42,988 nucleotides of DNA, taken from a virus. Taxonomy: Duplodnaviria; Heunggongvirae; Uroviricota; Caudoviricetes. Shown here one piece after another: positions 5,514 to 42,988 of the stretch. The stretch lies in IMG/VR virus record IMGVR_UViG_3300045988_149348. One strand, written 5' to 3'. A program made the position numbers and the translations under genes. Every line of letters starts with the position of its first letter. Position 1 is the first letter of the stretch. The notes below the pieces were generated by a model. The model was not told where the DNA came from. It saw only the letters and a list, made by a program, of their open reading frames with translations, and searched no databases.

Positions 5514-5721
5514 TATTGCGTCTCCACGGAGGCAAATTGTTTACTGATATTGGCATAACCGGAGCATCAGGAACTTTAAGAATAATTCCCGCAGAAAAAA
5601 GCACCGTAAAGCGGTGCTCCGTATTAGCATCAATAAGAAGATAAGACAGGTACTCATTACCGTACAACTTTAACGCGATACTATCCCATGAGTCCCCTTG
5701 AACCGTTCTATAATCATCCAA
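5503..5721 (-). CDS. LysM-like tail protein X
   Basis: 72 aa; the TVQGDSWDSIALKLYG...ILKVPD pattern is LysM-like, as in P2 gpX. Confidence 0.55.
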   Translation of the reverse strand: MDDYRTVQGDSWDSIALKLYGNEYLSYLLIDANTEHRFTVLFSAGIILKVPDAPVMPISVNNLPPWRRNSVT

Positions 5722-8506
5722 AACTTAATCTCCGTTGTTGGAACATATGAGCACTCAATTTCTTCTCAAAATCAGAATATCCCGCATCTAATGCTCTTTT
5801 AGCTGCCGCCTCAGTTTCCTTTGGTGAACCAGCCGGAAGATTGATTACAGGTGAATAGGTTATTCCACCAGTCACAGCATTAACGTTCTGGCGAGGTCCA
5901 GAAGTCCCGGCGGCAGATATCCCGTGAGGTGATAAATTTGATTGCCCGAACTTGGTTGCTATTGCATTCTGTAAGCTGTTATTCCTGCTAACGCCTGATG
6001 CCAGAGTAGTCATTATTGCACCACCTGACTTTGTTAGCTGTGAGAATGGACCTTTTTTCGCGTCAGAGAACGGTAAATACTCACGTACAGAAGAAAAAAC
6101 GCCTTTCACTTCATTAATTAAAGCATTTGCTTTTGATTTTATCCCAGTGATTAACGTCTCAATTATTTTTGCGCCTGACTCACTCCAGTTTATTCCAGAC
6201 AAATAAGCCGTTACAGATTGGAATGCTCTTATAAAGAGTCCAACTGGTGAAAAACGCATAAAAAAAGATACCAGTGTATCTATGATTTTCTTTCCTGTTT
6301 CGCTCCAGTTAATACCAGAAAGGTAATTTGTTGTAAGTTTAAATGCTTTAATTAAGAACGGAAGCGGAGACATCCATTTAAAAGCACTAATTAATGTACT
6401 GTAAATTCTTACTCCTGCCGAACTCCAGTTTATGTTGGAAAGATAATCCCATGCTTTACCAAACATAGATATAATCCATCCATTGAGATCAAAGTTTAAG
6501 ATAAAGTTTTTTATAGCTTCAAACGATTTAACTGTATATTCCTTAACAGAAGGCCAAACTCTGACAGCATAATCTCTGATCTTATCCCAGTTCTGATAGA
6601 GCAATATTCCTGCGGCAACCAGCGCAGATATAGCCATCTGAATCCACCCGAAGGGTGTTAGCTTTGTCGCTACAGATAAAGCCAGCATAGCTACCCTACA
6701 CGCTATAACCACACTTTTCATGGTTAGAAACGCACCTGCCGCCATCACAATCTGAGACACAAAATTGGGGTTGTTAGCTACAAATTCACTAATTTTTGTA
6801 ATCAGAGGAACCAAAACACTAAGCGCGGCATTCAAAGCAGGTTGCAAGGCCTGACCAAAACTTAATGATGCATTGCTAGCCTGAATACGTAATTGTTTCA
6901 ATCGCTCCGCATTGTCTTTCGTTATGTTGGCAAAATCGCGGTCAATAACAGCACTTCCAGCACCAAGAGATGTTGCTTTGATTCTCTGGTATTCCTTCCA
7001 GTTTTGAATCATCGGACGAACAAAGTTCTGAACCTGCATATCGCCAAATAGCTCACCAAGTAACTTCTGATCTCCGTTCTTAGTCATTTTCATGACAGAA
7101 TGCATTGCAGCTTCGAATGGATTCTTCCCTTTTTTCTGCGCTGTTGTGACAATTTTATATAAATCTACACCGAAATTTTTCTTTGCTTTTTTTAGTGTTT
7201 CAGGGGAAAGTATTTTCGCCAAAAAGTTGTTCATATTATTAGCAGCCTCATCCGAAGTTGCAGCACCTTTGCGAGCTATCTGCAAAGCTGCCCCCATCGT
7301 CGCGGCGGCTTCTTTACCTCCCATTTTTAATGCCTGGAACTGGGCACCAAGCACAGGAAGATTTTTGGCCATATCTTTAAATTCAAAGTTTCCCTCTTTC
7401 CCTGCCTGAACCAGAATCCCCATTGCAGACTTCATTTGAGATGGATCAATCTTCAATGAGTCACTTAATGTAAATGATGCTTTCGAGACATCGAGGATAT
7501 CAGAGCCAGTAGCTGTAGCTGTTCGCCCAATAGTTAGTAGATTCGCCTGAGCCTCTTTATAATCCTGCCCAGCAGCGACGAGAAAACCCTGAGCAGCCTG
7601 AATATCAGATGCAAACTGGTTGGTAGCCGTTCCGGTAACAAGCATCGCCTGCCCCATCGCCTGAACTTCTTCCGGCTTCATATCTGCCGTAAGACCAATC
7701 ATTTTGTTTTCACGATTGAAATTTGCTGCATTGTTAGCAGCAGCAAATGCACCAGCCGCTACAGCACCAGTTTGTAATCCTGACCTTACAAGTTGACTCT
7801 TTGCCTCACCAAGATGCTCTCGCTTCAATTCACGCTGCCTTTCCAGAGCGCGGTTTAACTCCTCCTGAGCACGTTTTACTGCAAGAACATTTTTCCGTGC
7901 ATCAGCCAACGCATTTTTATAGCTGTTAATTTTATCAATACGTTGTTTTTCTAATGCCCGGTTAAGTTCCTCCTGCTGTTTTTTCACTTGCTGAACATTT
8001 GCTCTGGCTAAAGCCAAAGCCGTTCTGTAGCGGTTAACCTGCTCAACGCTACGGACCTGAGCCTCACGATTACGATCAATGCTGGCTTTAAGCTCTTTCT
8101 CTCTTGAGGCCAAAGCTCTGGCAGATGTATCAGCTCCCTGATAGGCAGACTTTAAAGCGGCCAGTTCTTCACGCTGAGAACGTAGTGATGCTCGTAAATT
8201 CGATGAATGTGTTTTTGCCTTCTCAAAGTCACGAAGCATCGCTCTGGTTGGATTGGCCGTGTTTTTTATTTGCTTCTGTAACTCTTCAACGCGAGCGGCA
8301 GCTTTATGATATTCGAGGGCAGTCTGTCCAACCTTTACTTTTACAGATTGTAGCTTTTGAATTTCCCCATGTTCTTTCGTTAATCCAGCAAGCTCGGCAT
8401 TTAATTTAGCAACAGCCTGATTAGCTGTAGTAAAACTTTTGGGGAGAGAGGCGGCAACTTTGCCACCAATTTCAAAAGCCAGCTTAAAGTTCTTATTGCT
8501 GGCCAT
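5714..8506 (-). CDS. tail tape measure protein
   Basis: 930 aa; coiled-coil N-terminal half with repeated QEELNRALE(K/R)QR units, hydrophobic central segment, three tandem ~35-aa YLSGINWSE.G.KII repeats; located between the chaperone genes and baseplate genes. Confidence 0.85.
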   Translation of the reverse strand: MASNKNFKLAFEIGGKVAASLPKSFTTANQAVAKLNAELAGLTKEHGEIQKLQSVKVKVGQTALEYHKAAARVEELQKQIKNTANPTRAMLRDFEKAKTHSSNLRASLRSQREELAALKSAYQGADTSARALASREKELKASIDRNREAQVRSVEQVNRYRTALALARANVQQVKKQQEELNRALEKQRIDKINSYKNALADARKNVLAVKRAQEELNRALERQRELKREHLGEAKSQLVRSGLQTGAVAAGAFAAANNAANFNRENKMIGLTADMKPEEVQAMGQAMLVTGTATNQFASDIQAAQGFLVAAGQDYKEAQANLLTIGRTATATGSDILDVSKASFTLSDSLKIDPSQMKSAMGILVQAGKEGNFEFKDMAKNLPVLGAQFQALKMGGKEAAATMGAALQIARKGAATSDEAANNMNNFLAKILSPETLKKAKKNFGVDLYKIVTTAQKKGKNPFEAAMHSVMKMTKNGDQKLLGELFGDMQVQNFVRPMIQNWKEYQRIKATSLGAGSAVIDRDFANITKDNAERLKQLRIQASNASLSFGQALQPALNAALSVLVPLITKISEFVANNPNFVSQIVMAAGAFLTMKSVVIACRVAMLALSVATKLTPFGWIQMAISALVAAGILLYQNWDKIRDYAVRVWPSVKEYTVKSFEAIKNFILNFDLNGWIISMFGKAWDYLSNINWSSAGVRIYSTLISAFKWMSPLPFLIKAFKLTTNYLSGINWSETGKKIIDTLVSFFMRFSPVGLFIRAFQSVTAYLSGINWSESGAKIIETLITGIKSKANALINEVKGVFSSVREYLPFSDAKKGPFSQLTKSGGAIMTTLASGVSRNNSLQNAIATKFGQSNLSPHGISAAGTSGPRQNVNAVTGGITYSPVINLPAGSPKETEAAAKRALDAGYSDFEKKLSAHMFQQRRLSFG

Positions 8507-28244: not shown

Positions 28245-29312
28245 TCAGGCTTTCAATAGCGATTCTTTCAGATATCGGGCATCAGCCAGGGCGTTTGGAG
28301 TAATCTTGCGAACCCATGCATTACGGGTTGGACTCCACTTAAAGGCGCGTGATTTAAGCAGCGAACGAATGTTTGCCTCTGGTTTGCCAGGGAAATAAAA
28401 CAGGATGCGGTTATCCTCTGGATCTATCTCCATAGAAAAGCCGTCGTATTCTTCGCGCTGTGCTCCTGTTACAGACTTGACCGATTCAAGCTCCTTAATA
28501 CGGCTCTGTAGTCGTTTGATTTCGGCGTTATTGTTGCTCAGTGCGTATGAAGGGAATCCGATGCGCCCACAGAAATCTCCGGCCAGTAACTCTTTGGCTT
28601 CGCTTTCTGTAAACCTGAGATCGATTAATGCAGAAAGCTGCTGTAATTGGTCTTTTTTGTATTTGCGAATGGCCTTATTTGCGGCCTTCATTTTGACGTG
28701 TGACTTCATGCAGCCTTGCAGCTTACGAAGCAACTTAAATAGCGCATCAGGATCATCAGACGAAATTCCATTACGACCAACACCTGCGGCTTTGCTCTCG
28801 TAGTGTGATGCTTTACTTTCGCATTCAACAAAGGCTTTTCTGAATAACGCATCAGCTTTAGACAAACGGCGGCGATGGCCTTTCGCGCTATAATGGTCAA
28901 CTAAAATCGGCTGGCCTAACGGGATCACATCCAACAGGTCATGCGCTCGCTTATGCGCTACCGCACCTTCTTTTCTGGCTTTTTCTGCACGAGCAACATA
29001 TCGGGCAAGACGCGCGTTCTGGCGTTCCTGATAGGTGTTTACGTAATCATCTCCGCGCTGCTGCTGTTCAAGCCATGCTTTGCGCAGATCTTCTGTTACG
29101 TCCACCAGCTCCGCAGGGATACAACCAGTTTGGGCTTCATAAGAGTAACCATCCTCATAGATACGCCCATCGTCTTCAACAAAGAAAAAGGTTTCGTGCT
29201 CATCGCTTTTGACCATACGACCATTAACATGGCGTAATAGGTAGCCAGTATCAGTGCTTAACAGGCTGTTAGGGTTGTTGATCCAGTCAGAAATAATTAC
29301 TTGTTTATTCAT
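28245..29312 (-). CDS. hypothetical protein (possibly DUF3560-like)
   Basis: 355-aa ORF, first gene after the Q-like gene; GGAG ribosome-binding site; preceded by copy A of the shared ~100-bp leader. Family assignment from memory only. Confidence 0.5.
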   Translation of the reverse strand: MNKQVIISDWINNPNSLLSTDTGYLLRHVNGRMVKSDEHETFFFVEDDGRIYEDGYSYEAQTGCIPAELVDVTEDLRKAWLEQQQRGDDYVNTYQERQNARLARYVARAEKARKEGAVAHKRAHDLLDVIPLGQPILVDHYSAKGHRRRLSKADALFRKAFVECESKASHYESKAAGVGRNGISSDDPDALFKLLRKLQGCMKSHVKMKAANKAIRKYKKDQLQQLSALIDLRFTESEAKELLAGDFCGRIGFPSYALSNNNAEIKRLQSRIKELESVKSVTGAQREEYDGFSMEIDPEDNRILFYFPGKPEANIRSLLKSRAFKWSPTRNAWVRKITPNALADARYLKESLLKA

Positions 29313-31850: not shown

Positions 31851-31865
31851 ACCACGATATGTGGT
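31851..31865. promoter_or_regulatory. operator, ACCAC-N5-GTGGT family (ACCACGATATGTGGT), Cro-side
   Basis: Perfect 15-bp inverted repeat in the cro leader; imperfect neighbour ACCACATATCGTGAG at 31872..31886 falls in the spacer of a TTGAAA-17-TTTAAT promoter on the minus strand. Confidence 0.6.
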
Positions 31866-31953
31866 ATTAAAACCACATATCGTGAGTTTTTCAATGGGCG
31901 AAACAAAAAATAACCTTCTATTTGTGGTCCACCTCTCGTCTTACCATGTGAAA

Positions 31954-31968
31954 ACCACTAAATGTGGT
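31954..31968. promoter_or_regulatory. operator, ACCAC-N5-GTGGT family (ACCACTAAATGTGGT), repressor-side
   Basis: Perfect inverted repeat just upstream of a TATAAA -10-like hexamer (31973..31978) and the CI-like gene start. Confidence 0.6.
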
Positions 31969-32005: not shown

Positions 32006-32662
32006 ATGAAAAGCAACGACGAGAACATCAAGAAAGAAATAGGTCTGCGCATTCAGACTCTACGGAAACAATCCGGCATGACTGCCGGAGATCTCCAGCA
32101 AGTCACTGGAATAGGCTTAAGCACCTTGCAGAACTATGAGGCCGGATTAAGACAACCATCTATACCTGCCATCAAGAAAATCGCGCACGCCCTGAAAGCA
32201 TCAGCGCCTTATATCGCGTGCTTAACAGATAACCCGTTCCCACCCCAGAATACTAACGCTCCTGTTATTCCTGGGCTTGTAGCTATAAAAAATGACATAG
32301 CATCGCACGCCGGAGAAAAGCCAGTGCTGGCGATAGAACAGGAGATTCTACGAAGCAAGAACATCAACCCATCGTCTCTGTCAGTTCTCCAGAGCAACGA
32401 TGAGTTAATGTCACCAACAATATCCCCTGGCTCCCAAGTCCTGATTAATACAGACGATACAGAGATTCATGAGGGGATCTATGCCCTTGAAGACAGAAAT
32501 GGCCTGGTTGTTTTGAGGCACTGTAGAGTCATACCGGGTGACAATGCTGTTATGCTGTCAACCGAAAGGGATGCTGAAATGAACACTAAGCATCTGAATA
32601 ACGAGGAATTTAAGCGTTATAAAGTTCTTGGCCGCGTAGTTAGTGTTGTCAACTGGTTATGA
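32006..32662 (+). CDS. CI-like repressor (HTH_XRE N-domain + LexA/S24-like C-domain)
   Basis: 218 aa; N-terminal helix-turn-helix (LQQVTGIGLSTLQNYEAG); C-terminal ELMSPTISPGSQVLIN aligns by eye with the S24 GDSMxPxIxxGDxVLVD motif. Confidence 0.7.
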   Translation: MKSNDENIKKEIGLRIQTLRKQSGMTAGDLQQVTGIGLSTLQNYEAGLRQPSIPAIKKIAHALKASAPYIACLTDNPFPPQNTNAPVIPGLVAIKNDIASHAGEKPVLAIEQEILRSKNINPSSLSVLQSNDELMSPTISPGSQVLINTDDTEIHEGIYALEDRNGLVVLRHCRVIPGDNAVMLSTERDAEMNTKHLNNEEFKRYKVLGRVVSVVNWL

Positions 32663-32704: not shown

Positions 32705-32719
32705 ACCACATTTTGTGGT
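32705..32719. promoter_or_regulatory. operator, ACCAC-N5-GTGGT family (ACCACATTTTGTGGT)
   Basis: Perfect inverted repeat between the CI-like gene and 32755..33129, followed by TTGACA. Confidence 0.55.
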
Positions 32720-34976: not shown

Positions 34977-35002
34977 ACCGTCCTCAAAAGGACGGTTTTT
35001 TT
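34977..35002 (+). terminator. rho-independent terminator (plus strand)
   Basis: ACCGTCC-TCAAAA-GGACGGT followed by TTTTTT; overlaps the 3' end of the minus-strand gene 34984..35556. Confidence 0.6.
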
Positions 35003-35556
35003 GTTTCTCCCCCTTCCTTCCCAAATGATTCAAATGTTAATGAGAGTGAATCATTTGATATGTTCGATTTAGCGCCGTTATCGACCCAATTTCTGTATGC
35101 TTCATCACAACAGTACCTTACAGCAGTTGGAGTAACAGGGATGCCGCCCCCAAATGAGAATCCCATTGAGCTAATGCTAACTCTTTCGAATGGCCTATTT
35201 CTCAATGCTTCAAACCCCTTGCTATTAAAGTAACGCAGCATCAGAGGTAAAAGGTTATCCTCGTCCTGACTGATTGTTCCAGGGAAAAAGTAGTAACCAT
35301 AACGGTTAAATTCGGGAATAAGAATTTCTACCAATGACATGAAATTCACTGGAGTAATATTAAGGGCTGTGAAAGCACCAAAAAGGGCGTCAACTGTTAA
35401 TACAGACTGCCCGTTCTCTATCTTTGTCCATGCGTTTGGTGTTTTTCCAGCAGCTTGAGCCAGCACTCCTTGATGCACACCTCTTTCTAGCCTAAGTTCT
35501 TTTATGATCATTAGGTGAATTGTTGAAAAACATGAGTTTTTTGACTGTTCAATCAT
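34984..35556 (-). CDS. HTH_XRE-family DNA-binding protein with uncharacterised C-terminal domain
   Basis: 190 aa; helix-turn-helix VLAQAAGKTPNAWTKIENGQSVLTVD; GGGGA ribosome-binding site 6 nt upstream of ATG 35556. Confidence 0.55.
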   Translation of the reverse strand: MIEQSKNSCFSTIHLMIIKELRLERGVHQGVLAQAAGKTPNAWTKIENGQSVLTVDALFGAFTALNITPVNFMSLVEILIPEFNRYGYYFFPGTISQDEDNLLPLMLRYFNSKGFEALRNRPFERVSISSMGFSFGGGIPVTPTAVRYCCDEAYRNWVDNGAKSNISNDSLSLTFESFGKEGGETKKPSF

Positions 35557-35692: not shown

Positions 35693-35707
35693 CCCACACT
35701 ATGTGGT
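35693..35707. promoter_or_regulatory. operator, ACCAC-N5-GTGGT family (CCCACACTATGTGGT, one mismatch)
   Basis: Immediately upstream of an extended -10-like TGTTAAAAT (35711..35719) that precedes the candidate small-RNA region. Confidence 0.5.
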
Positions 35708-36005: not shown

Positions 36006-36197
36006 ATGACAAACCTACCCCATGACTATTACGTCAACCTCGTAAAGATCCTTCTCAAGAAAGCCTCATACGCCGATAAAGTCCGCCTGGCTGAAATCAT
36101 CGAGCGCGAAGCTATGCGCATCGCCAGCAACGATAACGCTGTTTCTGACGCAAAAATCTCCCTCGTAACCAAAGTAGTTATGGGAGGTGCAAAATGA
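36006..36197 (+). CDS. icd-like small ORF, translationally coupled to the antirepressor gene
   Basis: 63-aa ORF whose TGA stop overlaps the ATG of the next gene (ATGA); AAGGG ribosome-binding site lies in a CCTTAA/TTAAGG hairpin. Confidence 0.5.
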   Translation: MTNLPHDYYVNLVKILLKKASYADKVRLAEIIEREAMRIASNDNAVSDAKISLVTKVVMGGAK

Positions 36198-37375
36198 AAA
36201 CGCTTCCGATCGTTAACACCCTACAGCCTATCCTGCATAACCAGATCCCCGTTATCACTACTGAACTACTGGCAAAGCTATACGGCACAGACGTTGATAA
36301 CATCAAAAAAAATTACTCACGTAACGCAACCCGCTTTATTGAAGGAAAGCATTTTTTCAAAGTGGCTGGCGATGAGTTAAAAACTTTGCGAGTGACTTTA
36401 AGTCACTCACAAAATTTGCGACTAGTTTTAAACGAGTCACAAAATGAAGTGCAAATTTCCCCCAAGACTCGCTCTCTCATCCTCTGGACAGAACGCGGGG
36501 CTGCACGTCATGCCAAAATGCTTGAAACTAACCAAGCGTGGGATGTATTCGAACGGCTGGAAGACTGCTATTTCAGCCAGAACGCGCAAACGGCCGCGAC
36601 CGTAACCGTCTCGCCAAACAATGCTCGTGAGGTTGTCGATACGCTCAACGCCAAACCGATGTTTTACATTAAAGTGTGCAACAACGAGCCACTCACAACC
36701 TCAGCCGATGTTGCCCAGGCATTCAGCACCACAAACAATTCCATCGTTATGGCCATCGATGCGCTACGCATTCCTCGCACGGCTGCGGCGCGTCACTTCT
36801 TTAAAGAGCAACGACCGTTGGAAGGAAGCGACCGCGAAATAACAATCTATCGCATGACAAAAGACGGATTTACCTTGCTCATGGAGAGCATCGACGGTCC
36901 AGGCGTGAAAGATATCAAGCTGGCCTACATTGAAGCCTTTAACGCTATCAGCAGCGTGTTAAAAACACAGTACGAGCGTGATCTGGCTAAACGACTGTAC
37001 CAGGAAAAAACGATTATCCGCGCGGCAACAGAGCATAATCGGCTATTAACGGAACCGAACTACAGGAAGGAACTAATCAAGGAGTTTGACAAGGCAACAG
37101 GGAAAACCAAAGCGGCGCTAAATCTGCCAGCAATGACTCAGGAAAATGTGATATCAGCCTTACTTCTTGATCTGCTCAGAAACGCCAGAGCACTTATCAG
37201 CTTTGACGAAAACCTGAATCCTCAGCTCAAGCTACTACCACCGACAGGCAAAGTAGTCGACCAGGCTGATCACAACAGCATACTCAGCGTACTGGATGCA
37301 AACCTGCCAGCCAGGACACTACAGGATCTGATAAAAACATGTGCTGATAAGCTGGCACAGAAAAGCAGACCATAA
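36194..37375 (+). CDS. antirepressor-like protein (ORF6N/KilA-N-like N-domain + Rha-like domain)
   Basis: 393 aa; N-terminal ITTELLAKLYGTDVDNIKKNYSRNATRF (ORF6N-like) and central PLTTSADVAQAFSTTNNSIVMAIDAL (Rha-like), as recalled; GGGAGG ribosome-binding site. Confidence 0.6.
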   Translation: MKTLPIVNTLQPILHNQIPVITTELLAKLYGTDVDNIKKNYSRNATRFIEGKHFFKVAGDELKTLRVTLSHSQNLRLVLNESQNEVQISPKTRSLILWTERGAARHAKMLETNQAWDVFERLEDCYFSQNAQTAATVTVSPNNAREVVDTLNAKPMFYIKVCNNEPLTTSADVAQAFSTTNNSIVMAIDALRIPRTAAARHFFKEQRPLEGSDREITIYRMTKDGFTLLMESIDGPGVKDIKLAYIEAFNAISSVLKTQYERDLAKRLYQEKTIIRAATEHNRLLTEPNYRKELIKEFDKATGKTKAALNLPAMTQENVISALLLDLLRNARALISFDENLNPQLKLLPPTGKVVDQADHNSILSVLDANLPARTLQDLIKTCADKLAQKSRP

Positions 37376-39065: not shown

Positions 39066-39365
39066 TCAGATGTTAAACGCTATTCGTTTTCCTGTGGGAA
39101 GCTCAACATCCAGGCTTAATTTGCCTCCCATAGCTTCAACGTAACGCTTTAATGTCGCCAGCTTTAAATCATTTCCGCGCTGCTCCAGCTTTGTTACTGC
39201 TGGCTGGCTTATACCCATCGCCTCAGCAACCTGTTTTTGTGATAACTGGAGTTCTTCACGCATCATCTGCAAGCCGACCTCAAGAATCATCTCATCTGCC
39301 ATTTCTTTAATTCGCGCCTGGCTTTCAGGTGAACGGCTGGCAATCACCTCATCTAATGTTCTCAT
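39066..39365 (-). CDS. HigA-like antitoxin (HTH_XRE)
   Basis: 99 aa; helix-turn-helix LSQKQVAEAMGISQPAVTKLEQ; start overlaps the stop of the upstream toxin-like gene. Confidence 0.6.
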   Translation of the reverse strand: MRTLDEVIASRSPESQARIKEMADEMILEVGLQMMREELQLSQKQVAEAMGISQPAVTKLEQRGNDLKLATLKRYVEAMGGKLSLDVELPTGKRIAFNI

Positions 39366-39718
39366 TACTTGCTCTCCAGTGTGTTCAGATGTGCTGCAAA
39401 CTCATCCTCAGCTATACGCACCAGTTTTTTATAAAACCGCTTATCGTTACTTTTGTCTCCTGCACAAAGAACGATAGCCCGGCGAATCGGATCGAACGCA
39501 TAAAAGGCTCTTATCGGACGGCCAGAAAACTGAACGCGAAGCTCTTTCATATTTTTGTACCGAGAACCTTTTACGGTATCGGCATATGGCCTGGGTAACT
39601 CAGGTCCGTAAACCTGTAGATTTTTCAAATCAGCCAAAACCTTTTCCTGAAGAGCGTCTTCTTGCTCATTTAGCCAGTCGTCAAATCGCTGGCTAAAAAG
39701 TACCGTCCACATGATCAA
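39365..39718 (-). CDS. HigB/RelE-family (Gp49-like) addiction-module toxin
   Basis: 117 aa; W.V.F...F..WL...GS....MKELR...YRA.Y......IVL..G.K pattern as recalled for the killer-protein family; toxin-first order. Confidence 0.6.
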   Translation of the reverse strand: MIMWTVLFSQRFDDWLNEQEDALQEKVLADLKNLQVYGPELPRPYADTVKGSRYKNMKELRVQFSGRPIRAFYAFDPIRRAIVLCAGDKSNDKRFYKKLVRIAEDEFAAHLNTLESK

Positions 39719-39956
39719 TCCTATAACCTGTAGTTTATATCACTAACTATATAACCCGTAGATTATAATTTCAAGAAAAACGGGGCTATTTAACATAATG
39801 GACGTTATCGGCACCACCGGAGCACCGTTCATTGTCGGATCTAAAAAATCCGCTCAAAAGATCATGTTTTCCTGGGCGTTTTCCACCGTTTTTTATGTTG
39901 CTTATTTGTTAATAAAATCTCGTTTCCAGTTTCGCCTCATTTTCGACGCGAAAGCC

Positions 39957-40247
39957 CTATTTTTGTGACTTTACTCCTGGCATATGGACTTCCCAGCGCC
40001 GAATCCCCATAGCTGCGCAAAAATCAGCCACATAATTCAATCCCGCCCATTCGCGGATACCACCACGGGCTTTTTCAATGAAAACGGCAATCCCTTTTTT
40101 ATTGAGAGCAAAAAGCCGCCAGCTTTTTGTCACTTCGTCCTGGGTAGCCACAACACAAGTGAAAGCTCCCATGCGATACAGGTCCAAGAACTCTTTGCGT
40201 GTTTTGCGTACAAGTTCCATAACAAACCTCATATTTGCATGTTTCAA
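39957..40247 (-). CDS. hypothetical protein
   Basis: 96-aa ORF, 4-nt overlap with the upstream HTH gene. Confidence 0.4.
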   Translation of the reverse strand: MKHANMRFVMELVRKTRKEFLDLYRMGAFTCVVATQDEVTKSWRLFALNKKGIAVFIEKARGGIREWAGLNYVADFCAAMGIRRWEVHMPGVKSQK

Positions 40248-40543
40248 ACATCTGTTTTGTTATCAATGAAGATTAACCCTAACCCAGCGAAGTAACACAG
40301 CAGCGCCCAGGCTGCATACGGAATGCTGGATCTGGATGTGGACTCCTTTAACATCTGCCAGTTGCGAACATTGCGACTATCTTTTAAGCCAAGTTTTTTG
40401 GCCAACTGCGAGCCGCTCATTCCGGTCAGGCCAATGACTGCCCGAACTTCTCCACATGTAGGAGATTCCCATTCATCCGCTTTTTTTAAACAAGCCGGAT
40501 TCAACATTTTTAAAACAGTATCTTTATCCATAACCATCTCCAT
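40244..40543 (-). CDS. helix-turn-helix protein with hydrophobic C-terminal segment
   Basis: 99 aa; MSGSQLAKKLGLKDSRNVRNW helix-turn-helix-like; AGGAAA-TC-TTTTCCT palindrome upstream. Confidence 0.4.
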   Translation of the reverse strand: MEMVMDKDTVLKMLNPACLKKADEWESPTCGEVRAVIGLTGMSGSQLAKKLGLKDSRNVRNWQMLKESTSRSSIPYAAWALLCYFAGLGLIFIDNKTDV

Positions 40544-40895
40544 TTATTATATCTACGATGGTAGGAAATCTTTTCCTATGTGGCAATAGAAATTTACTAC
40601 ATTGCGTATAAGACAAGTTTTCTATGTCTAATAGGAAATGATGTTTCTTACGTTTTATCGCGTTCTGATGGCTACTGTGTGCGTATTTATCGACGTTTAT
40701 TGATAAGGCTCGCTCCTTCCTCCTGCAAAGCCCGGCCGTAGGCCTTATTTCGGCCTTATATAAATTGATTTTGTATAGTTCGAAACGCGCCGTTTCGAAA
40801 AGGATGATCAGGCTGCTCCATGCCTCCGGCAAGTGCCGGAGGAGGTATATTTGAGCGTAGCGATTCGAACCGGCGCGAGCTTTAGCTCGCTGCAA

Positions 40896-41174
40896 GGGCG
40901 AACATATTCACAGGCAAAGCCTGCGTAAGTTAAATAAAGAAAGTCTTAATAAAAGAAAGTGATTTTGCATTTATTTGTTTAGTGCATCTATTATAAAAAA
41001 CCATTTGCATATATATATCAAAACTGTGGATAACTTTATTAGCCGATGCCTGTAAAGGCGATATTTTTGCTGTGTTCAGGTTTAGAGAAAATTAATTTAG
41101 ATTGTTTTTTGAACAGATGTTTTATTGCGACGTAGATAATCCTCCGGTAAAACCGGATTCATCATTCAGGTGGG
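40896..41174. other. candidate replication origin region downstream of repA
   Basis: AT-rich non-coding stretch with a perfect DnaA box (TTATCCACA on minus strand, 41025..41033); position relative to repA as in IncFII oriR. Confidence 0.45.
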
Positions 41175-42023
41175 TTAATGTTGGAGTGATTTCCAGGTCT
41201 TTCTTAACCTGTTATAACGCTGCTCAACGAGGGATCGTAAATATGCAAGGTCAGCACCTGGATACATGCCATCAGCAAATTCCTGACTAACCTCTCTAGT
41301 GATTTGATGACGAAGTTCGGCCTCTCCCTTTTCCTGAACAAGACGCGCAGCTCTCTCCGCTGCTTTCTGTTTTGCCTTTATCTCTCTGGCCGTCTTCCTC
41401 TGACGCCATACATTCTCCATCTGCTCCTGAATAACAATACGCTTATAATCAGCCTCCGTTATCGCTTTTTTAAGCCGTTCGCTATTCTTCGCATTGAAGT
41501 AATTAAGTTTCTGGCTAACCGCACGTCTCCATGCTTGTTCAGTAATACCAACGGTTTCCAGCAGTTGATCACGAATCTCTATTTTCGCTGGCCAATACTG
41601 TTTATTCACCCGATCCCAGCGACGTTCATAATCAATAAAACCTAACGCTTTCAGTTGCGACAACGCCCTTGTACAGCGCGTTATAGACTTGTTCCCAGCT
41701 TCGGATACGGTAGACAGGCCGCAAAAATCAGCCAACGCCTCAGCACTAGCCAGAACCCGCTTAGAAATGATGTTTACATGGTGCAAAATCGCAGCGATCA
41801 CAGCATTAATCGCCCGACGACGATGCTCGTTTATCCGGCGCTTCCGCTCTGACGGTTGATTAACGTAGAACGCAACCTCACACGTAAGATCACGCCCATT
41901 AATGCGCTGTAAAGCATCAGATAACACCAGCGGCAGCTTGTGCGTATGGTGCTTTGGAGGCTGGAACTCCGGCGACAAATTACAAACGTAAGCTGAACGT
42001 AGAGACGGCATTGGTCTATCCAT
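41175..42023 (-). CDS. repA: plasmid replication initiator RepA, IncFII RepA1-like
   Basis: 283 aa from ATG 42023; CGLSTVSEAGNKSITRCTRALSQLKALGFIDYERRWD matches the RepA1 core motif as recalled. The ORF track's longer form (to 42185) starts at a TTG. Confidence 0.75.
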   Translation of the reverse strand: MDRPMPSLRSAYVCNLSPEFQPPKHHTHKLPLVLSDALQRINGRDLTCEVAFYVNQPSERKRRINEHRRRAINAVIAAILHHVNIISKRVLASAEALADFCGLSTVSEAGNKSITRCTRALSQLKALGFIDYERRWDRVNKQYWPAKIEIRDQLLETVGITEQAWRRAVSQKLNYFNAKNSERLKKAITEADYKRIVIQEQMENVWRQRKTAREIKAKQKAAERAARLVQEKGEAELRHQITREVSQEFADGMYPGADLAYLRSLVEQRYNRLRKTWKSLQH

Positions 42024-42067
42024 ATGTTCGCTCTTGCGTCCACGGAAAACCAACGTATAATGGGAGT

Positions 42068-42148
42068 TGTCGATGCGCCCATGGATATTGTTGTTGGTTT
42101 TCCGTGGATGTCGCAAGAAGCCCGCAGATTTATCTGCGGGCTTTTTGT
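42068..42148 (+). ncRNA. candidate CopA-like antisense RNA (countertranscript to the repA leader)
   Basis: Plus-strand promoter TTGCGT-16-TATAAT (-10 at 42056..42061); stem-loop CCAUGGA/UCCGUGG; terminator GCCCGCAGA-TTTA-TCTGCGGGC plus TTTTT (42120..42146); lies 45-125 nt upstream of repA on the opposite strand. Confidence 0.55.
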
Positions 42149-42190
42149 TTCCATATCTGGTCACTTTCCAACCAGACACCCACAATCATA

Positions 42191-42205
42191 ACCACGTTAC
42201 GTGGT
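42191..42205. promoter_or_regulatory. operator, ACCAC-N5-GTGGT family (ACCACGTTACGTGGT), upstream of repA
   Basis: Perfect 15-bp inverted repeat in the spacer of a putative minus-strand promoter with -10 TATGAT. Confidence 0.55.
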
Positions 42206-42335
42206 TTTAAGAGAACTCTACCACAACACTTTCGGTCATGCACGAAGTCTCTCACTGATCGAACGATAATCCACCAGTAAAAGGATCTAAATTGGATCTC
42301 GTTTTGCGAGCATCATACTACTGGCCTAACTCCAG

Positions 42336-42890
42336 TCAATGATTCCCAGCCGGAAACCTGCGGTAAAGCGTGGATAAGGTAACATCGAAGATAATCGCTA
42401 TCCGCTTACGTGAAACACCATTCGCAATAAGCCTTCCGATCTGTTCCCATTGCTCTGGTGCCAATTTTGAGCGGCGTCCTCCTATCCTGCCGTTAGCCCT
42501 TGCCACCGCCAATCCTGCACGCGTTCTTTCAATCATATTTTCCCGCTCCATCTCTGCGACTGCACTCAGCATCGTGTAGGCAAAGCGGCCAATTGAAGTG
42601 CTAATTTTTATCCCTTCCGTAATCGAAATAAACTCAATGTTGTTTGATAAAAAATAGTTAAGTAAATCAACAAGATGAATCAGAGAACGCCCCATTCGGT
42701 CCAGCTTCCAGACAATAACCGTATCGCCCGGCCGTAACACCTTCAGTAGCTTATCAAGTCCTGGTCGTTTTGATTTAGCACCGGATATTTTATCTTCAAA
42801 AATCCGGTCACATCCTGAACTCCTGAGCGCTTCCAGTTGTAATTCCAAATTCTGGTCAAAAGTTGACACCCTCGCATAACCATATTGCAT
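42336..42890 (-). CDS. serine recombinase, Gin/Hin/Cin-family DNA invertase
   Basis: 184 aa; YARVSTFDQNLELQ catalytic-serine motif, VWKLDRMGRS, C-terminal GRIGGRR...LSTLYRRFPA helix-turn-helix; closely parallels Gin as recalled; gix-like site about 65 bp upstream. Confidence 0.8.
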   Translation of the reverse strand: MQYGYARVSTFDQNLELQLEALRSSGCDRIFEDKISGAKSKRPGLDKLLKVLRPGDTVIVWKLDRMGRSLIHLVDLLNYFLSNNIEFISITEGIKISTSIGRFAYTMLSAVAEMERENMIERTRAGLAVARANGRIGGRRSKLAPEQWEQIGRLIANGVSRKRIAIIFDVTLSTLYRRFPAGNH

Positions 42891-42953
42891 ACTTTCTAAA
42901 CCGCGATTGTTGCTAAAAGCGGAAAAAAATATCGTTCAGACGACACAGAGGCA

Positions 42954-42988
42954 ATTCGCAAAAACCTCGGTTTACAGGAAACGGTAAA
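42954..42988. repeat. gix/hix-like invertase crossover site (right copy); inverted-repeat partner of 1..35
   Basis: Reverse complement of 42954..42979 is TTCCTGTAAACCGAGGTTTTTGCGAA; 25-bp perfect inverted repeat with window positions 1..25. Confidence 0.7.

Follow-up and report, generated by a model that had tools for sequence, protein, structure and literature searches.

Replicon locus and distribution

The replicon described here, which belongs to an Escherichia coli phage-plasmid of 47-49 kilobases (kb), lies towards one end of a 42,988-nucleotide (nt) stretch of DNA from a tailed virus of the Caudoviricetes (IMG/VR record IMGVR_UViG_3300045988_149348; hereafter the window, meaning the stretch at its full length). 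It consists, on the minus strand, of two promoters, a structured leader, an initiator gene (repA) and an origin. An antisense RNA is predicted from the plus strand of the leader, and a palindrome at the inner promoter recurs around a gene for a CI-like repressor elsewhere in the window. The module extends as follows.

~40866-42339, minus strand: replicon module; the conserved origin block reaches ~40866 and the two conserved repA promoters reach 42339

A preliminary description of this DNA had drawn the module at 40896-42205, which is too narrow.

In PLSDB, 59 plasmids of ~47-52 kb share at least 95% identity with 40600-42335; nearly all come from E. coli, and all are non-mobilizable. The Yersinia phages vB_YpM_39, 41 and 44 match this region at 98.5-99.2%. 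The replicon is carried by 71 of 5426 complete E. coli genomes (~1.3%), among them the reference strain ATCC 25922; the 82 places concerned are without exception plasmid-borne (~47-50 kb), none being chromosomal. Annotated neighbours in matching plasmids and phages include a toxin-antitoxin pair and P2-type genes for tail and baseplate; some members also have a Hin-type invertase gene. As all places are plasmid-borne and the neighbours are those of a phage, the carriers constitute a P2-tailed phage-plasmid family, and 40866-42339 is its plasmid-maintenance replicon. PLSDB, which gives the MOB-suite typing, lists no replicon type for a matching plasmid. One paper refers in passing to a 'P2-like bacteriophage that replicates like a plasmid' in E. 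coli (PMC6202452), and the literature that we searched held no description of the replicon itself.

The RepA initiator

41175-42023, minus strand: repA, 282 amino acids (aa) from the ATG at 42023, or 278 aa from the ATG at 42011

RepA is a member of the IncFII/IncL-M superfamily. It matches the Pfam family IncFII_repA (PF02387) over profile positions 2-272 of 275 (E=1.1e-43, 150 bits, cut-off 22.9) and passes the NCBIfam model NF040977 'RepA_IncFII_LM' (232.2 bits, cut-off 70), but it fails the strict equivalog model TIGR03474 incFII_RepA (78.8 bits, cut-off 446.9), on which the canonical IncFII control (L034) scores 578. The RepA1-type IncFII initiator of the preliminary description is thus borne out by the hidden Markov model searches with Pfam and NF040977 and not by the strict model. 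Identity to RepA of typed IncFII plasmids is ~31-41% and covers part of the length only, and none of the solved structures is related to RepA by sequence.

The RefSeq/PGAP annotation gives a longer RepA of 326 aa from an ATG equivalent to 42154 (L001, 6576-7556). Its N-terminal extension, which lies over the leader hairpins (42024-42154), is probably a spurious annotation: (i) a 1-nt deletion in the intervening hairpin loop breaks the frame in the window; (ii) a relative whose RepA is 100% identical (L023) has a 5-nt insertion in the same stretch; and (iii) relatives at 81-85% RepA identity are without that ATG and are annotated at 277 aa. The Pfam profile starts nine residues after Met-42023. 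Taken together, the insertions and deletions, the absence of the upstream ATG in relatives and the Pfam start place the beginning of repA at 42023 or 42011.

In relatives with 60% RepA identity, a 162-aa open reading frame (ORF) with weak IncFII_repA similarity has an ATGA overlap with the repA start (L006 and L009, 2516-3004; L037, 9516-10004). This ORF is what remains, at the N-terminal end, of a second RepA type (~30% related) whose intact form is found in L028, L031 and L033, which suggests that initiator genes were swapped behind a retained leader. The canonical IncFII locus likewise has a 160-aa ORF between tap and repA (1283-1765). A scan of genome contigs returned a single match, due to chance (L036).

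The origin downstream of repA

We aligned the DNA 3' of repA from ten relatives with RepA identities of 59-100%. The following elements were recognized.

41141-41157, minus strand: hairpin TCCGGTTTTACCGGAGG right after the repA stop, kept in all relatives
41111-41104, minus strand: CAAAAAAC after the post-stop hairpin, kept in all relatives
41025-41033, minus strand: DnaA box TTATCCACA, a single perfect copy in the window
41010-41006, 40987-40983 and 40970-40966, minus strand: three ATGCA-containing blocks, candidate RepA binding sites
40930-40960: AT-rich 15-mers TTAAATAAAGAAAGT and TTAATAAAAGAAAGT, a candidate DNA-unwinding element
40866-40925, minus strand: GC-rich block with hairpins CGCAGGCTTTGCCTGTG and GCGAGCTAAAGCTCGC, plus CGCCGGTTCG; many columns invariant in 10 of 10 relatives

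The order of elements is the same in the relatives: a hairpin TCCGG..CCGGAGG with CAAAAAA, ~60 variable bases and then a near-invariant block starting at the DnaA box. The box lies 142 nt past the repA stop and is near-invariant in the ten relatives; its surroundings are AT-rich, as the preliminary description had it, at 75-80% A+T. By number alone a perfect box is not significant (~0.3 expected per 43 kb); it becomes meaningful because it is invariant across relatives and because its position matches that in a canonical IncFII plasmid. In that plasmid (L034) a post-stop hairpin 'TCCGGCCCGCGCCGGAGG ... CACAAAAAAG' with an A-run is followed by a DnaA box 176 nt past the stop and by AT-rich DNA ending in a hairpin.

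Beyond the box, ATGCAAATGG, GATGCA and ATGCAA.ATCACT are unchanged across relatives down to 59% RepA identity, and RepA may bind at the ATGCA elements or the blocks flanking ATCGA. The two AT-rich 15-mers form a direct repeat with 16-nt spacing inside an 80% A+T stretch, and this region is AT-rich in the relatives too. The GC-rich hairpin block may act as a priming signal. The origin block is the sole part of the replicon with a blastn match between the 60% relatives and the window family (74-75%). At the level of sequence, an IncFII-type origin layout is confirmed.

repA promoters and leader types

Two promoters precede repA, with a pair of GATC sites between them.

42312-42339, minus strand: P1, the outer repA promoter; TTGACT (42339-42334), 16-nt spacer, TATGAT (42317-42312)
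42295-42298 and 42284-42287: GATC pair just 3' of the expected P1 start
42215-42243, minus strand: P2, the inner repA promoter; extended -10 TGgTAGAGT (42223-42215) and a weak -35-like GTGCAT (42243-42238) 17 nt upstream

The leaders of the family are of two types. Type A is found in the window and in Salmonella and Klebsiella relatives with 81-85% RepA identity; type B is found in Citrobacter and in metagenomic elements, where it precedes a 59-60% or a ~30% RepA homologue. The type B leader has no match in PLSDB or in the phage collection. Both types share a common order of P1 (TTGAC(T/G)-16-TA(T/G)(G/A)AT), the GATC pair, P2 (TGnTA(G/A)AGT) and a 15-base-pair (bp) palindrome right after P2, followed by a small hairpin, a GC-rich hairpin, a long hairpin and the repA start region. 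The palindrome differs by type (i.e. ACCAC-N5-GTGGT in A and ACTAC-N5-GTAGC in B). It appears that the A and B modules, together with the palindrome proper to each, are exchanged without regard to which initiator gene follows.

P1 matches 10 of 12 consensus bases, and its TTGAC and AGTA..AT are invariant in both leader types. P2 keeps TG-n-TA(G/A)AGT and TGCA unchanged in leaders of either type, and its -10 is similar to 'GTGCTAGATT', the -10 region that precedes CopA in the canonical IncFII locus. A TATGAT at 42190-42185 was considered as a -10 with the palindrome in its spacer and was rejected, being unconserved (TATGAA, TAAGAA or TAAGAT in relatives) and without a -35.

The -35 of P1 overlaps the stop codon of a gene that profile search identifies as follows.

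42336-42890: Hin-type invertase gene

The window and the Yersinia phages carry the invertase gene, which is missing from plasmid NZ_CP032259 (L001, 7737-8040). This near-identical plasmid retains ~30 nt of the gene's end together with P1 and P2; the remnant is followed by a 'transferase' gene and by tail-fibre genes in a different arrangement. Since near-identical plasmids without the invertase keep both promoters, the gene does not belong to the replicon. The preliminary description had placed an operator and the invertase gene in the usual position of CopB: the operator stands, and the ~95 nt between P1 and P2 hold no copB ORF, but the invertase lies outside the replicon.

Two side observations concern the leader. 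GATCC...GATC, with sites 11 nt apart, is invariant in 8 of 8 aligned leaders of both types, and a further GATC lies at 42257-42260; the pair possibly represents Dam/SeqA sites or a small RNA hairpin. Also, the type B element L028 carries P1-type immunity RNAs (5590-5788; Rfam C4 antisense RNA at 77 bits, c4-a1b1 and isrK), so the same leader/replicon module travels with a different immunity system.

A predicted antisense RNA

On the plus strand, opposite the leader, the following features were found.

42034-42061, plus strand: antisense promoter; TTGCGT (42034-42039), 16-nt spacer, TATAAT (42056-42061)
~42067-42148, plus strand: predicted antisense RNA, ~80 nt, made up of a 5' tail, stem-loop SL1 and a terminator hairpin
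42079-42085 with 42101-42107, plus strand: 7-bp stem of SL1, loop 42086-42100
42113-42148, plus strand: antisense terminator hairpin, 16 bp, with U-run

Both the promoter and the ~80-nt stem-loop and terminator RNA antisense to the repA leader had been proposed in the preliminary description, and both are recovered, the latter as a predicted fold (-38.3 kcal/mol, z=-5.9; none of 200 shuffles as stable). The hexamers are invariant in relatives (TTGCGT or TTGCAT; TATAAT) at a spacing of 16 or 18 nt, while the spacer, which forms one arm of the long leader hairpin, is wholly different in sequence between types A and B. The 5' tail (G)GGAGUUGUCGA is conserved. In eight distinct type A sequences, 98.6% of the cells of the antisense structure (SL1 plus terminator) pair, as against at most 53% in slid-partner controls; three pairs are compensatory, two SL1 pairs are changed on both sides, and RNAalifold independently predicts the same consensus structure. 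In addition, certain G-U pairs of SL1 would turn into C-A mismatches if read from the sense strand; U25-G50 is seen in six of the eight sequences, G18-U57 and G20-U55 in all eight. These antisense-specific pairs, together with the two-sided changes, argue that the plus-strand RNA itself is under selection.

The conservation could have another source. On this account no antisense RNA functions here, and the hairpins are structure of the repA mRNA leader, e.g. a hairpin that masks the ribosome site and is opened by another factor, with the GC hairpin serving as a bidirectional terminator that insulates repA from upstream tail-fibre/invertase transcription. The long sense hairpin does show the strongest covariation and has sense-strand G-U pairs, the GC hairpin is symmetric with both an A-tract and a T-tract, and the -35 of the antisense promoter matches only three of six consensus bases, which is why it was missed by the consensus scan; it is conservation that supports this promoter. 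Against this account, TTGC(G/A)T and TATAAT remain invariant at 16-18 nt though the sequence between them has been replaced, SL1 carries the pairs just described, the T-run is clean on the plus strand only and the 5' tail GGAGUUGUCGAGGC is conserved across leader types. We therefore regard a leader without a functional antisense RNA as unlikely, and the plus-strand RNA as a real and comparatively well-supported candidate countertranscript, which would be transcribed from the promoter at 42034-42061.

This RNA belongs to neither the CopA family nor any other in Rfam. The Rfam CopA model (RF00042) gave no match at E<=1 in 39500-42988 or in the close relative L003, although the positive control L034 scored 103.6 bits. 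Reciprocally, a covariance model built from type A finds the type B RNAs (~40 bits, E ~1e-7) and nothing in the canonical IncFII locus or in two IncB-like loci. The null with its control and the null of the reciprocal model place the antisense RNA outside the CopA family, so that the CopA-like identity given to it in the preliminary description falls away.

The same results bear on the simplest reading of the locus, namely an ordinary IncFII (R1/R100) replicon in which a diverged CopA blocks a tap-like leader peptide coupled to repA. That reading can draw on the Pfam match, the origin layout and post-stop hairpin shared with the canonical locus, the resemblance of the P2 -10 to the region upstream of CopA, a 'AUUGUUGG'-like motif in the SL1 loop that is shared with CopA stem-loop I, and a 33-codon upstream ORF in a 59% relative (L010) whose TGA overlaps the repA ATG. 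It is nevertheless quite improbable: (i) the CopA model is null in both the window and L003 and the reciprocal model is null as well; (ii) RepA fails TIGR03474 and P1 and P2 have no copB ORF between them; (iii) no ORF is conserved in the antisense target region, where the 42154 ATG and the loop ATG are lost and insertions and deletions occur; and (iv) the upstream ORF of L010 is the N-terminal remnant of a different RepA and not a tap homologue. The claim that the locus reproduces the IncFII basic replicon accordingly holds for the architecture (i.e. initiator, leader countertranscript and downstream origin) and fails for the CopA label, copB and tap.

Two further candidates in this region were rejected. 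A small plus-strand ORF (MRPWILLLVF...) on the antisense RNA lacks its ATG in the majority of variants and would run into the terminator before reaching a stop codon. A match to Rfam Thr_leader at 42038-42150 (31.6 bits, gathering score 55) is an artefact of the hairpin-plus-terminator shape and no real attenuator.

Leader hairpins and a proposed refolding switch

Two alternative folds are predicted for the repA leader.

42032-42118, minus strand: long repA leader hairpin; 5' arm 42108-42093, 3' arm 42054-42039, base helix 42118-42112 with 42038-42032
42009-42055, minus strand: alternative 'off' hairpin, in which the freed 3' arm pairs with AUGGAU..ACCAAUG and covers the candidate starts 42023 and 42011

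The antisense promoter sits inside the long hairpin. In the sense leader structure (i.e. the terminator-like hairpin, the base helix and the 16-bp long hairpin) 96.5% of cells pair, with four compensatory pairs in 11 cells, a result reached by none of 500 shuffles. The stems of the long hairpin are unrelated in sequence between types A and B and pair in both.

The off hairpin of the window (CGUUGGUUUUCCGUGG...AUGGAU.AGACCAAUG) has a predicted energy of -19.0 kcal/mol, a value equalled by 7 of 500 mononucleotide shuffles. When the part covered by the antisense RNA is forced unpaired, this hairpin has the lowest energy in all 12 variants analysed, which include both types; folded alone it ranges from -15.6 to -20.2 kcal/mol across variants. 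The pairing is retained among relatives through U-A to A-U and wobble changes, with ACCAAU, CCAGC, UUCAAC and GAAUUCAAC each fitting its own 3' arm; the type B counterpart is a released arm CCUGGC that pairs with GCCAGGA, the ribosome site. One base of the 3' arm (U in the window, A in relatives) covaries both with its 5'-arm partner (A to U, columns 55-107) and with its partner in the start region (A to U). From this folding and covariation we infer a translational switch in which binding of the antisense RNA would free an arm that pairs with the repA start.

We found no tap-like leader peptide that is conserved. Among relatives the upstream ATG is in frame 0, +1 or +2; the ATG at 42154 and the loop ATG are unconserved, and insertions and deletions separate variants with identical RepA. 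A leader peptide from the hairpin loop (ATGGGCGC...) was rejected, its ATG being CTG in L011 and missing in type B. A pseudoknot between the loop UAUCCAU and AUGGAUA at the start, a complementarity of 7 nt, is present in the window and lost in L004, and was not adopted.

Operators and the CI-like repressor

The palindrome at P2 is one of several of its kind in the window.

42189-42207: repA operator palindrome AAACCAC-GTAAC-GTGGTTA, core ACCACGTTACGTGGT at 42191-42205
31851-31865: O1, perfect, immediately following the -10 of a leftward promoter (TTGAAA-17-TTTAAT, as read from the sequence)
31873-31887: imperfect operator near O1, in the spacer of that leftward promoter
31954-31968: O2, perfect
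32006-32662, plus strand: CI-like repressor gene, 218 aa, Pfam HTH_3 (E=4.5e-11)
32705-32719: O3, perfect, upstream of the ORF-parA (par) operon (ParA family by profile search)

ACCAC-N5-GTGGT occurs four times perfectly in the 43-kb window and eight times with at most one mismatch, against 0.62 expected, and none of 100 shuffles reaches eight. All four perfect copies share the longer form AACCAC-N5-GTGGT(A/T). O1 and O2 lie between the CI-like gene and the divergent early leftward operon, and O1 overlaps the early lytic promoter. The repressor gene, with its helix-turn-helix (HTH) domain, thus adjoins a divergent promoter region with repeated palindromes, i.e. a lambdoid-type CI/operator layout. 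At repA the operator spans about +3 to +18 of P2, 10 nt past its -10, and lies at about +100 of P1. In the 81-85% relatives the half-sites are kept at the same position while the 5-nt centre varies, and an 85% relative (L030) has the same palindrome at repA, four more around the orthologous repressor gene and a nearly unchanged HTH segment. The copies near the CI-like gene and the layout of L030 support, at the sequence level, the earlier proposal of a phage-type operator at a repA promoter.

The repA palindrome could instead serve RepA autoregulation, be bound by some other protein of the host or plasmid, or form a small hairpin in the leader RNA. Autoregulation is common among plasmid initiators, and type B leaders have a different palindrome in the same place, with no second copy in the type B sequence examined. 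However, three further perfect copies surround the CI-like gene, one of them overlapping the early promoter, and there is no copy in the origin, where RepA must bind. The palindrome type goes with the leader type and not with the RepA type, type B preceding both 60% and ~30% RepA homologues, which argues against RepA autoregulation; and conserved half-sites around a variable 5-nt centre fit a protein site and not an RNA hairpin. A function other than that of an immunity operator thus seems a poor prospect.

We conclude that the repA palindrome is very likely an immunity operator, and we infer from the arrangement of sites that the CI-like protein would be the ligand of the operators. P2 is then probably repressed in lysogens and released when the repressor is absent. 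The C-terminus of the repressor matches Peptidase_S24 weakly (E=0.0018, 18.4 bits, cut-off 23.3), matches in the Protein Data Bank cover the HTH alone, and by our own reading the sequence is DELM where LexA and lambda CI carry the catalytic GDSM. RecA-mediated self-cleavage is doubtful, and induction may proceed through an antirepressor.

A fifth, imperfect operator-like site (CCCACACTATGTGGT, 35693-35707) is conserved in L002 and L020; it is flanked by an HTH gene (34984-35556, minus strand) on one side and an ORF6N/Rha-domain gene (36194-37375) on the other. It may place an antirepressor-like gene under the same repressor.

Proposed mechanism and significance

Bringing these elements together, we propose an IncFII/IncL-M-type replicon with antisense refolding control and CI-like repressor control of P2, a model to which we assign a probability of about 0.68. 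RepA, expressed from the minus strand, would act at the origin just downstream, and from knowledge of the family replication is expected to be of the R1 theta type. repA would be read from the strong P1 (42339-42312) and from the extended -10 promoter P2 (42243-42215), and a constitutive antisense RNA of ~80 nt, whose promoter lies inside the long leader hairpin, would set the copy number. In free mRNA the 5' arm would hold the 3' arm; antisense RNA bound to the 5' arm and loop would release the 3' arm, which would refold on AUGGAU..ACCAAUG and bury the repA start, so that translation would fall as copy number rises. The CI-like repressor would bind ACCAC-N5-GTGGT at P2 in the role of R1 CopB, so that P2 would be shut off once lysogeny is established; when the repressor is absent, either after entry into a fresh cell or upon induction, P2 would fire and give a burst of RepA. 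The direction and size of any such effect are predictions of the model, as are the refolding and the binding of the repressor.

Several points weigh against this model. The ribosome site and start of repA are ambiguous, with a conserved upstream ATG in three different frames among relatives. Both P2 and the antisense promoter, the latter with its weak -35, escaped the consensus promoter scan, and the sense-strand hairpin alone could explain part of the conservation in the antisense region. The S24 domain of the repressor is below threshold. With the operator ~100 nt beyond P1, the stronger promoter, repression may be incomplete. The type B palindrome ACTAC-N5-GTAGC differs from that of type A, and there is no second copy of it in the type B contigs, which end just past repA. 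Finally, given a partial primase-like protein (28245-29312), lytic replication might have a function of its own.

A more far-reaching version remains tentative: a single IncFII-superfamily replicon would be governed in two layers, by a refolding antisense RNA family and by an immunity repressor that replaces CopB, such that the lysis-lysogeny switch sets the replication rate. If true, copy number would be low in the lysogen and replication would burst on infection or induction. If both controls hold, the phage has adopted a plasmid copy-control circuit in which its own immunity repressor replaces that of the plasmid. What appears to be new here is the antisense RNA family and the immunity operator in place of CopB control, the IncFII-type initiator and origin being already known. 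A correct anatomy would provide a usable typing and incompatibility target, and the replicon family is also found in phages isolated on Yersinia pestis.

Genes next to the origin

A Gp49/HigB-like toxin and an HTH antitoxin lie slightly beyond the origin, in an origin-side gene group spanning 39066-39718 and 39957-40543. Two small ORFs (96 and 99 aa, no family match) lie between this pair and the origin, and relatives keep both the pair and the ORFs in this position beside the origin. Among ten early-region or adjacent proteins scanned, PHROGs annotation identified ParB-like proteins, an endolysin and the one partial primase-like match mentioned above, with no further initiator and no helicase. 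This is compatible with RepA and the origin also serving lytic growth.

Comparison with known systems

The window resembles the IncFII plasmids R1 and R100 in several respects: (i) its RepA falls in PF02387 and the order is control region, repA and origin; (ii) a post-stop hairpin with an A-run is followed by a DnaA box ~140-180 nt downstream and then by AT-rich DNA; and (iii) the leader encodes a countertranscript and the outer promoter is accompanied by an inner promoter bearing a repressor site. It differs in that RepA fails the strict incFII model, the RNA lies outside the CopA family and copB is absent between P1 and P2, whereas the canonical locus has copB (annotated 'replication regulatory protein RepA'). 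In R1, CopB controls the inner repA promoter from a site at its -35; in the window the inner promoter carries a probable phage immunity operator downstream of the -10. The predicted control also differs, as it would act by refolding over the repA start and not by a block of leader-peptide translation.

The I-complex and IncL-M replicons (e.g. IncB pMU720, ColIb-P9 and pMU604) share with the window the joint model NF040977 and a short antisense RNA against a leader stem-loop. Unlike them, the window has no conserved leader peptide and its pseudoknot is unsupported; Rfam PK-repBA and PK-repZ gave no match in the window at E<=1. PK-repBA leaders do occur in L005 (2869-2989, 49.3 bits) and L035 (2351-2469, 60.4 bits; gathering score 45), of which L005 is the nearest non-phage RepA relative (63% identity, in a conjugative-plasmid context) and L035 shares 36%.

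In the phage-plasmids N15 and P1 a prophage repressor operator at the replication gene ties immunity to replication. P1 has separate plasmid and lytic replicons, of which C1 controls the lytic one alone, and N15 has a different, multifunctional RepA. The window is similar in having a repressor operator at its replication gene and differs in that the operator lies inside an antisense-controlled plasmid replicon of IncFII type.

The closest parallels to the proposed refolding come from pT181 and pIP501 attenuation and from ColE2 RNAI, where a countertranscript on the 5' part of the leader switches the downstream RNA to a shut-off hairpin. The window would likewise form an antisense-induced alternative hairpin that lowers initiator expression. 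Its hairpin has no U-run and covers the start codon, so the effect would be on translation and not on termination, and the sequences are unrelated.

Within the IncFII superfamily, CopA of R1 blocks the tap ribosome site and RNAI of IncB/IncI prevents an activating pseudoknot. Given the PK-repBA leaders of L005 and L035, related initiators sit behind three different antisense-control designs. If the refolding switch is real, it would be a third kind of antisense mechanism within one initiator superfamily, beside CopA/tap and RNAI/pseudoknot.

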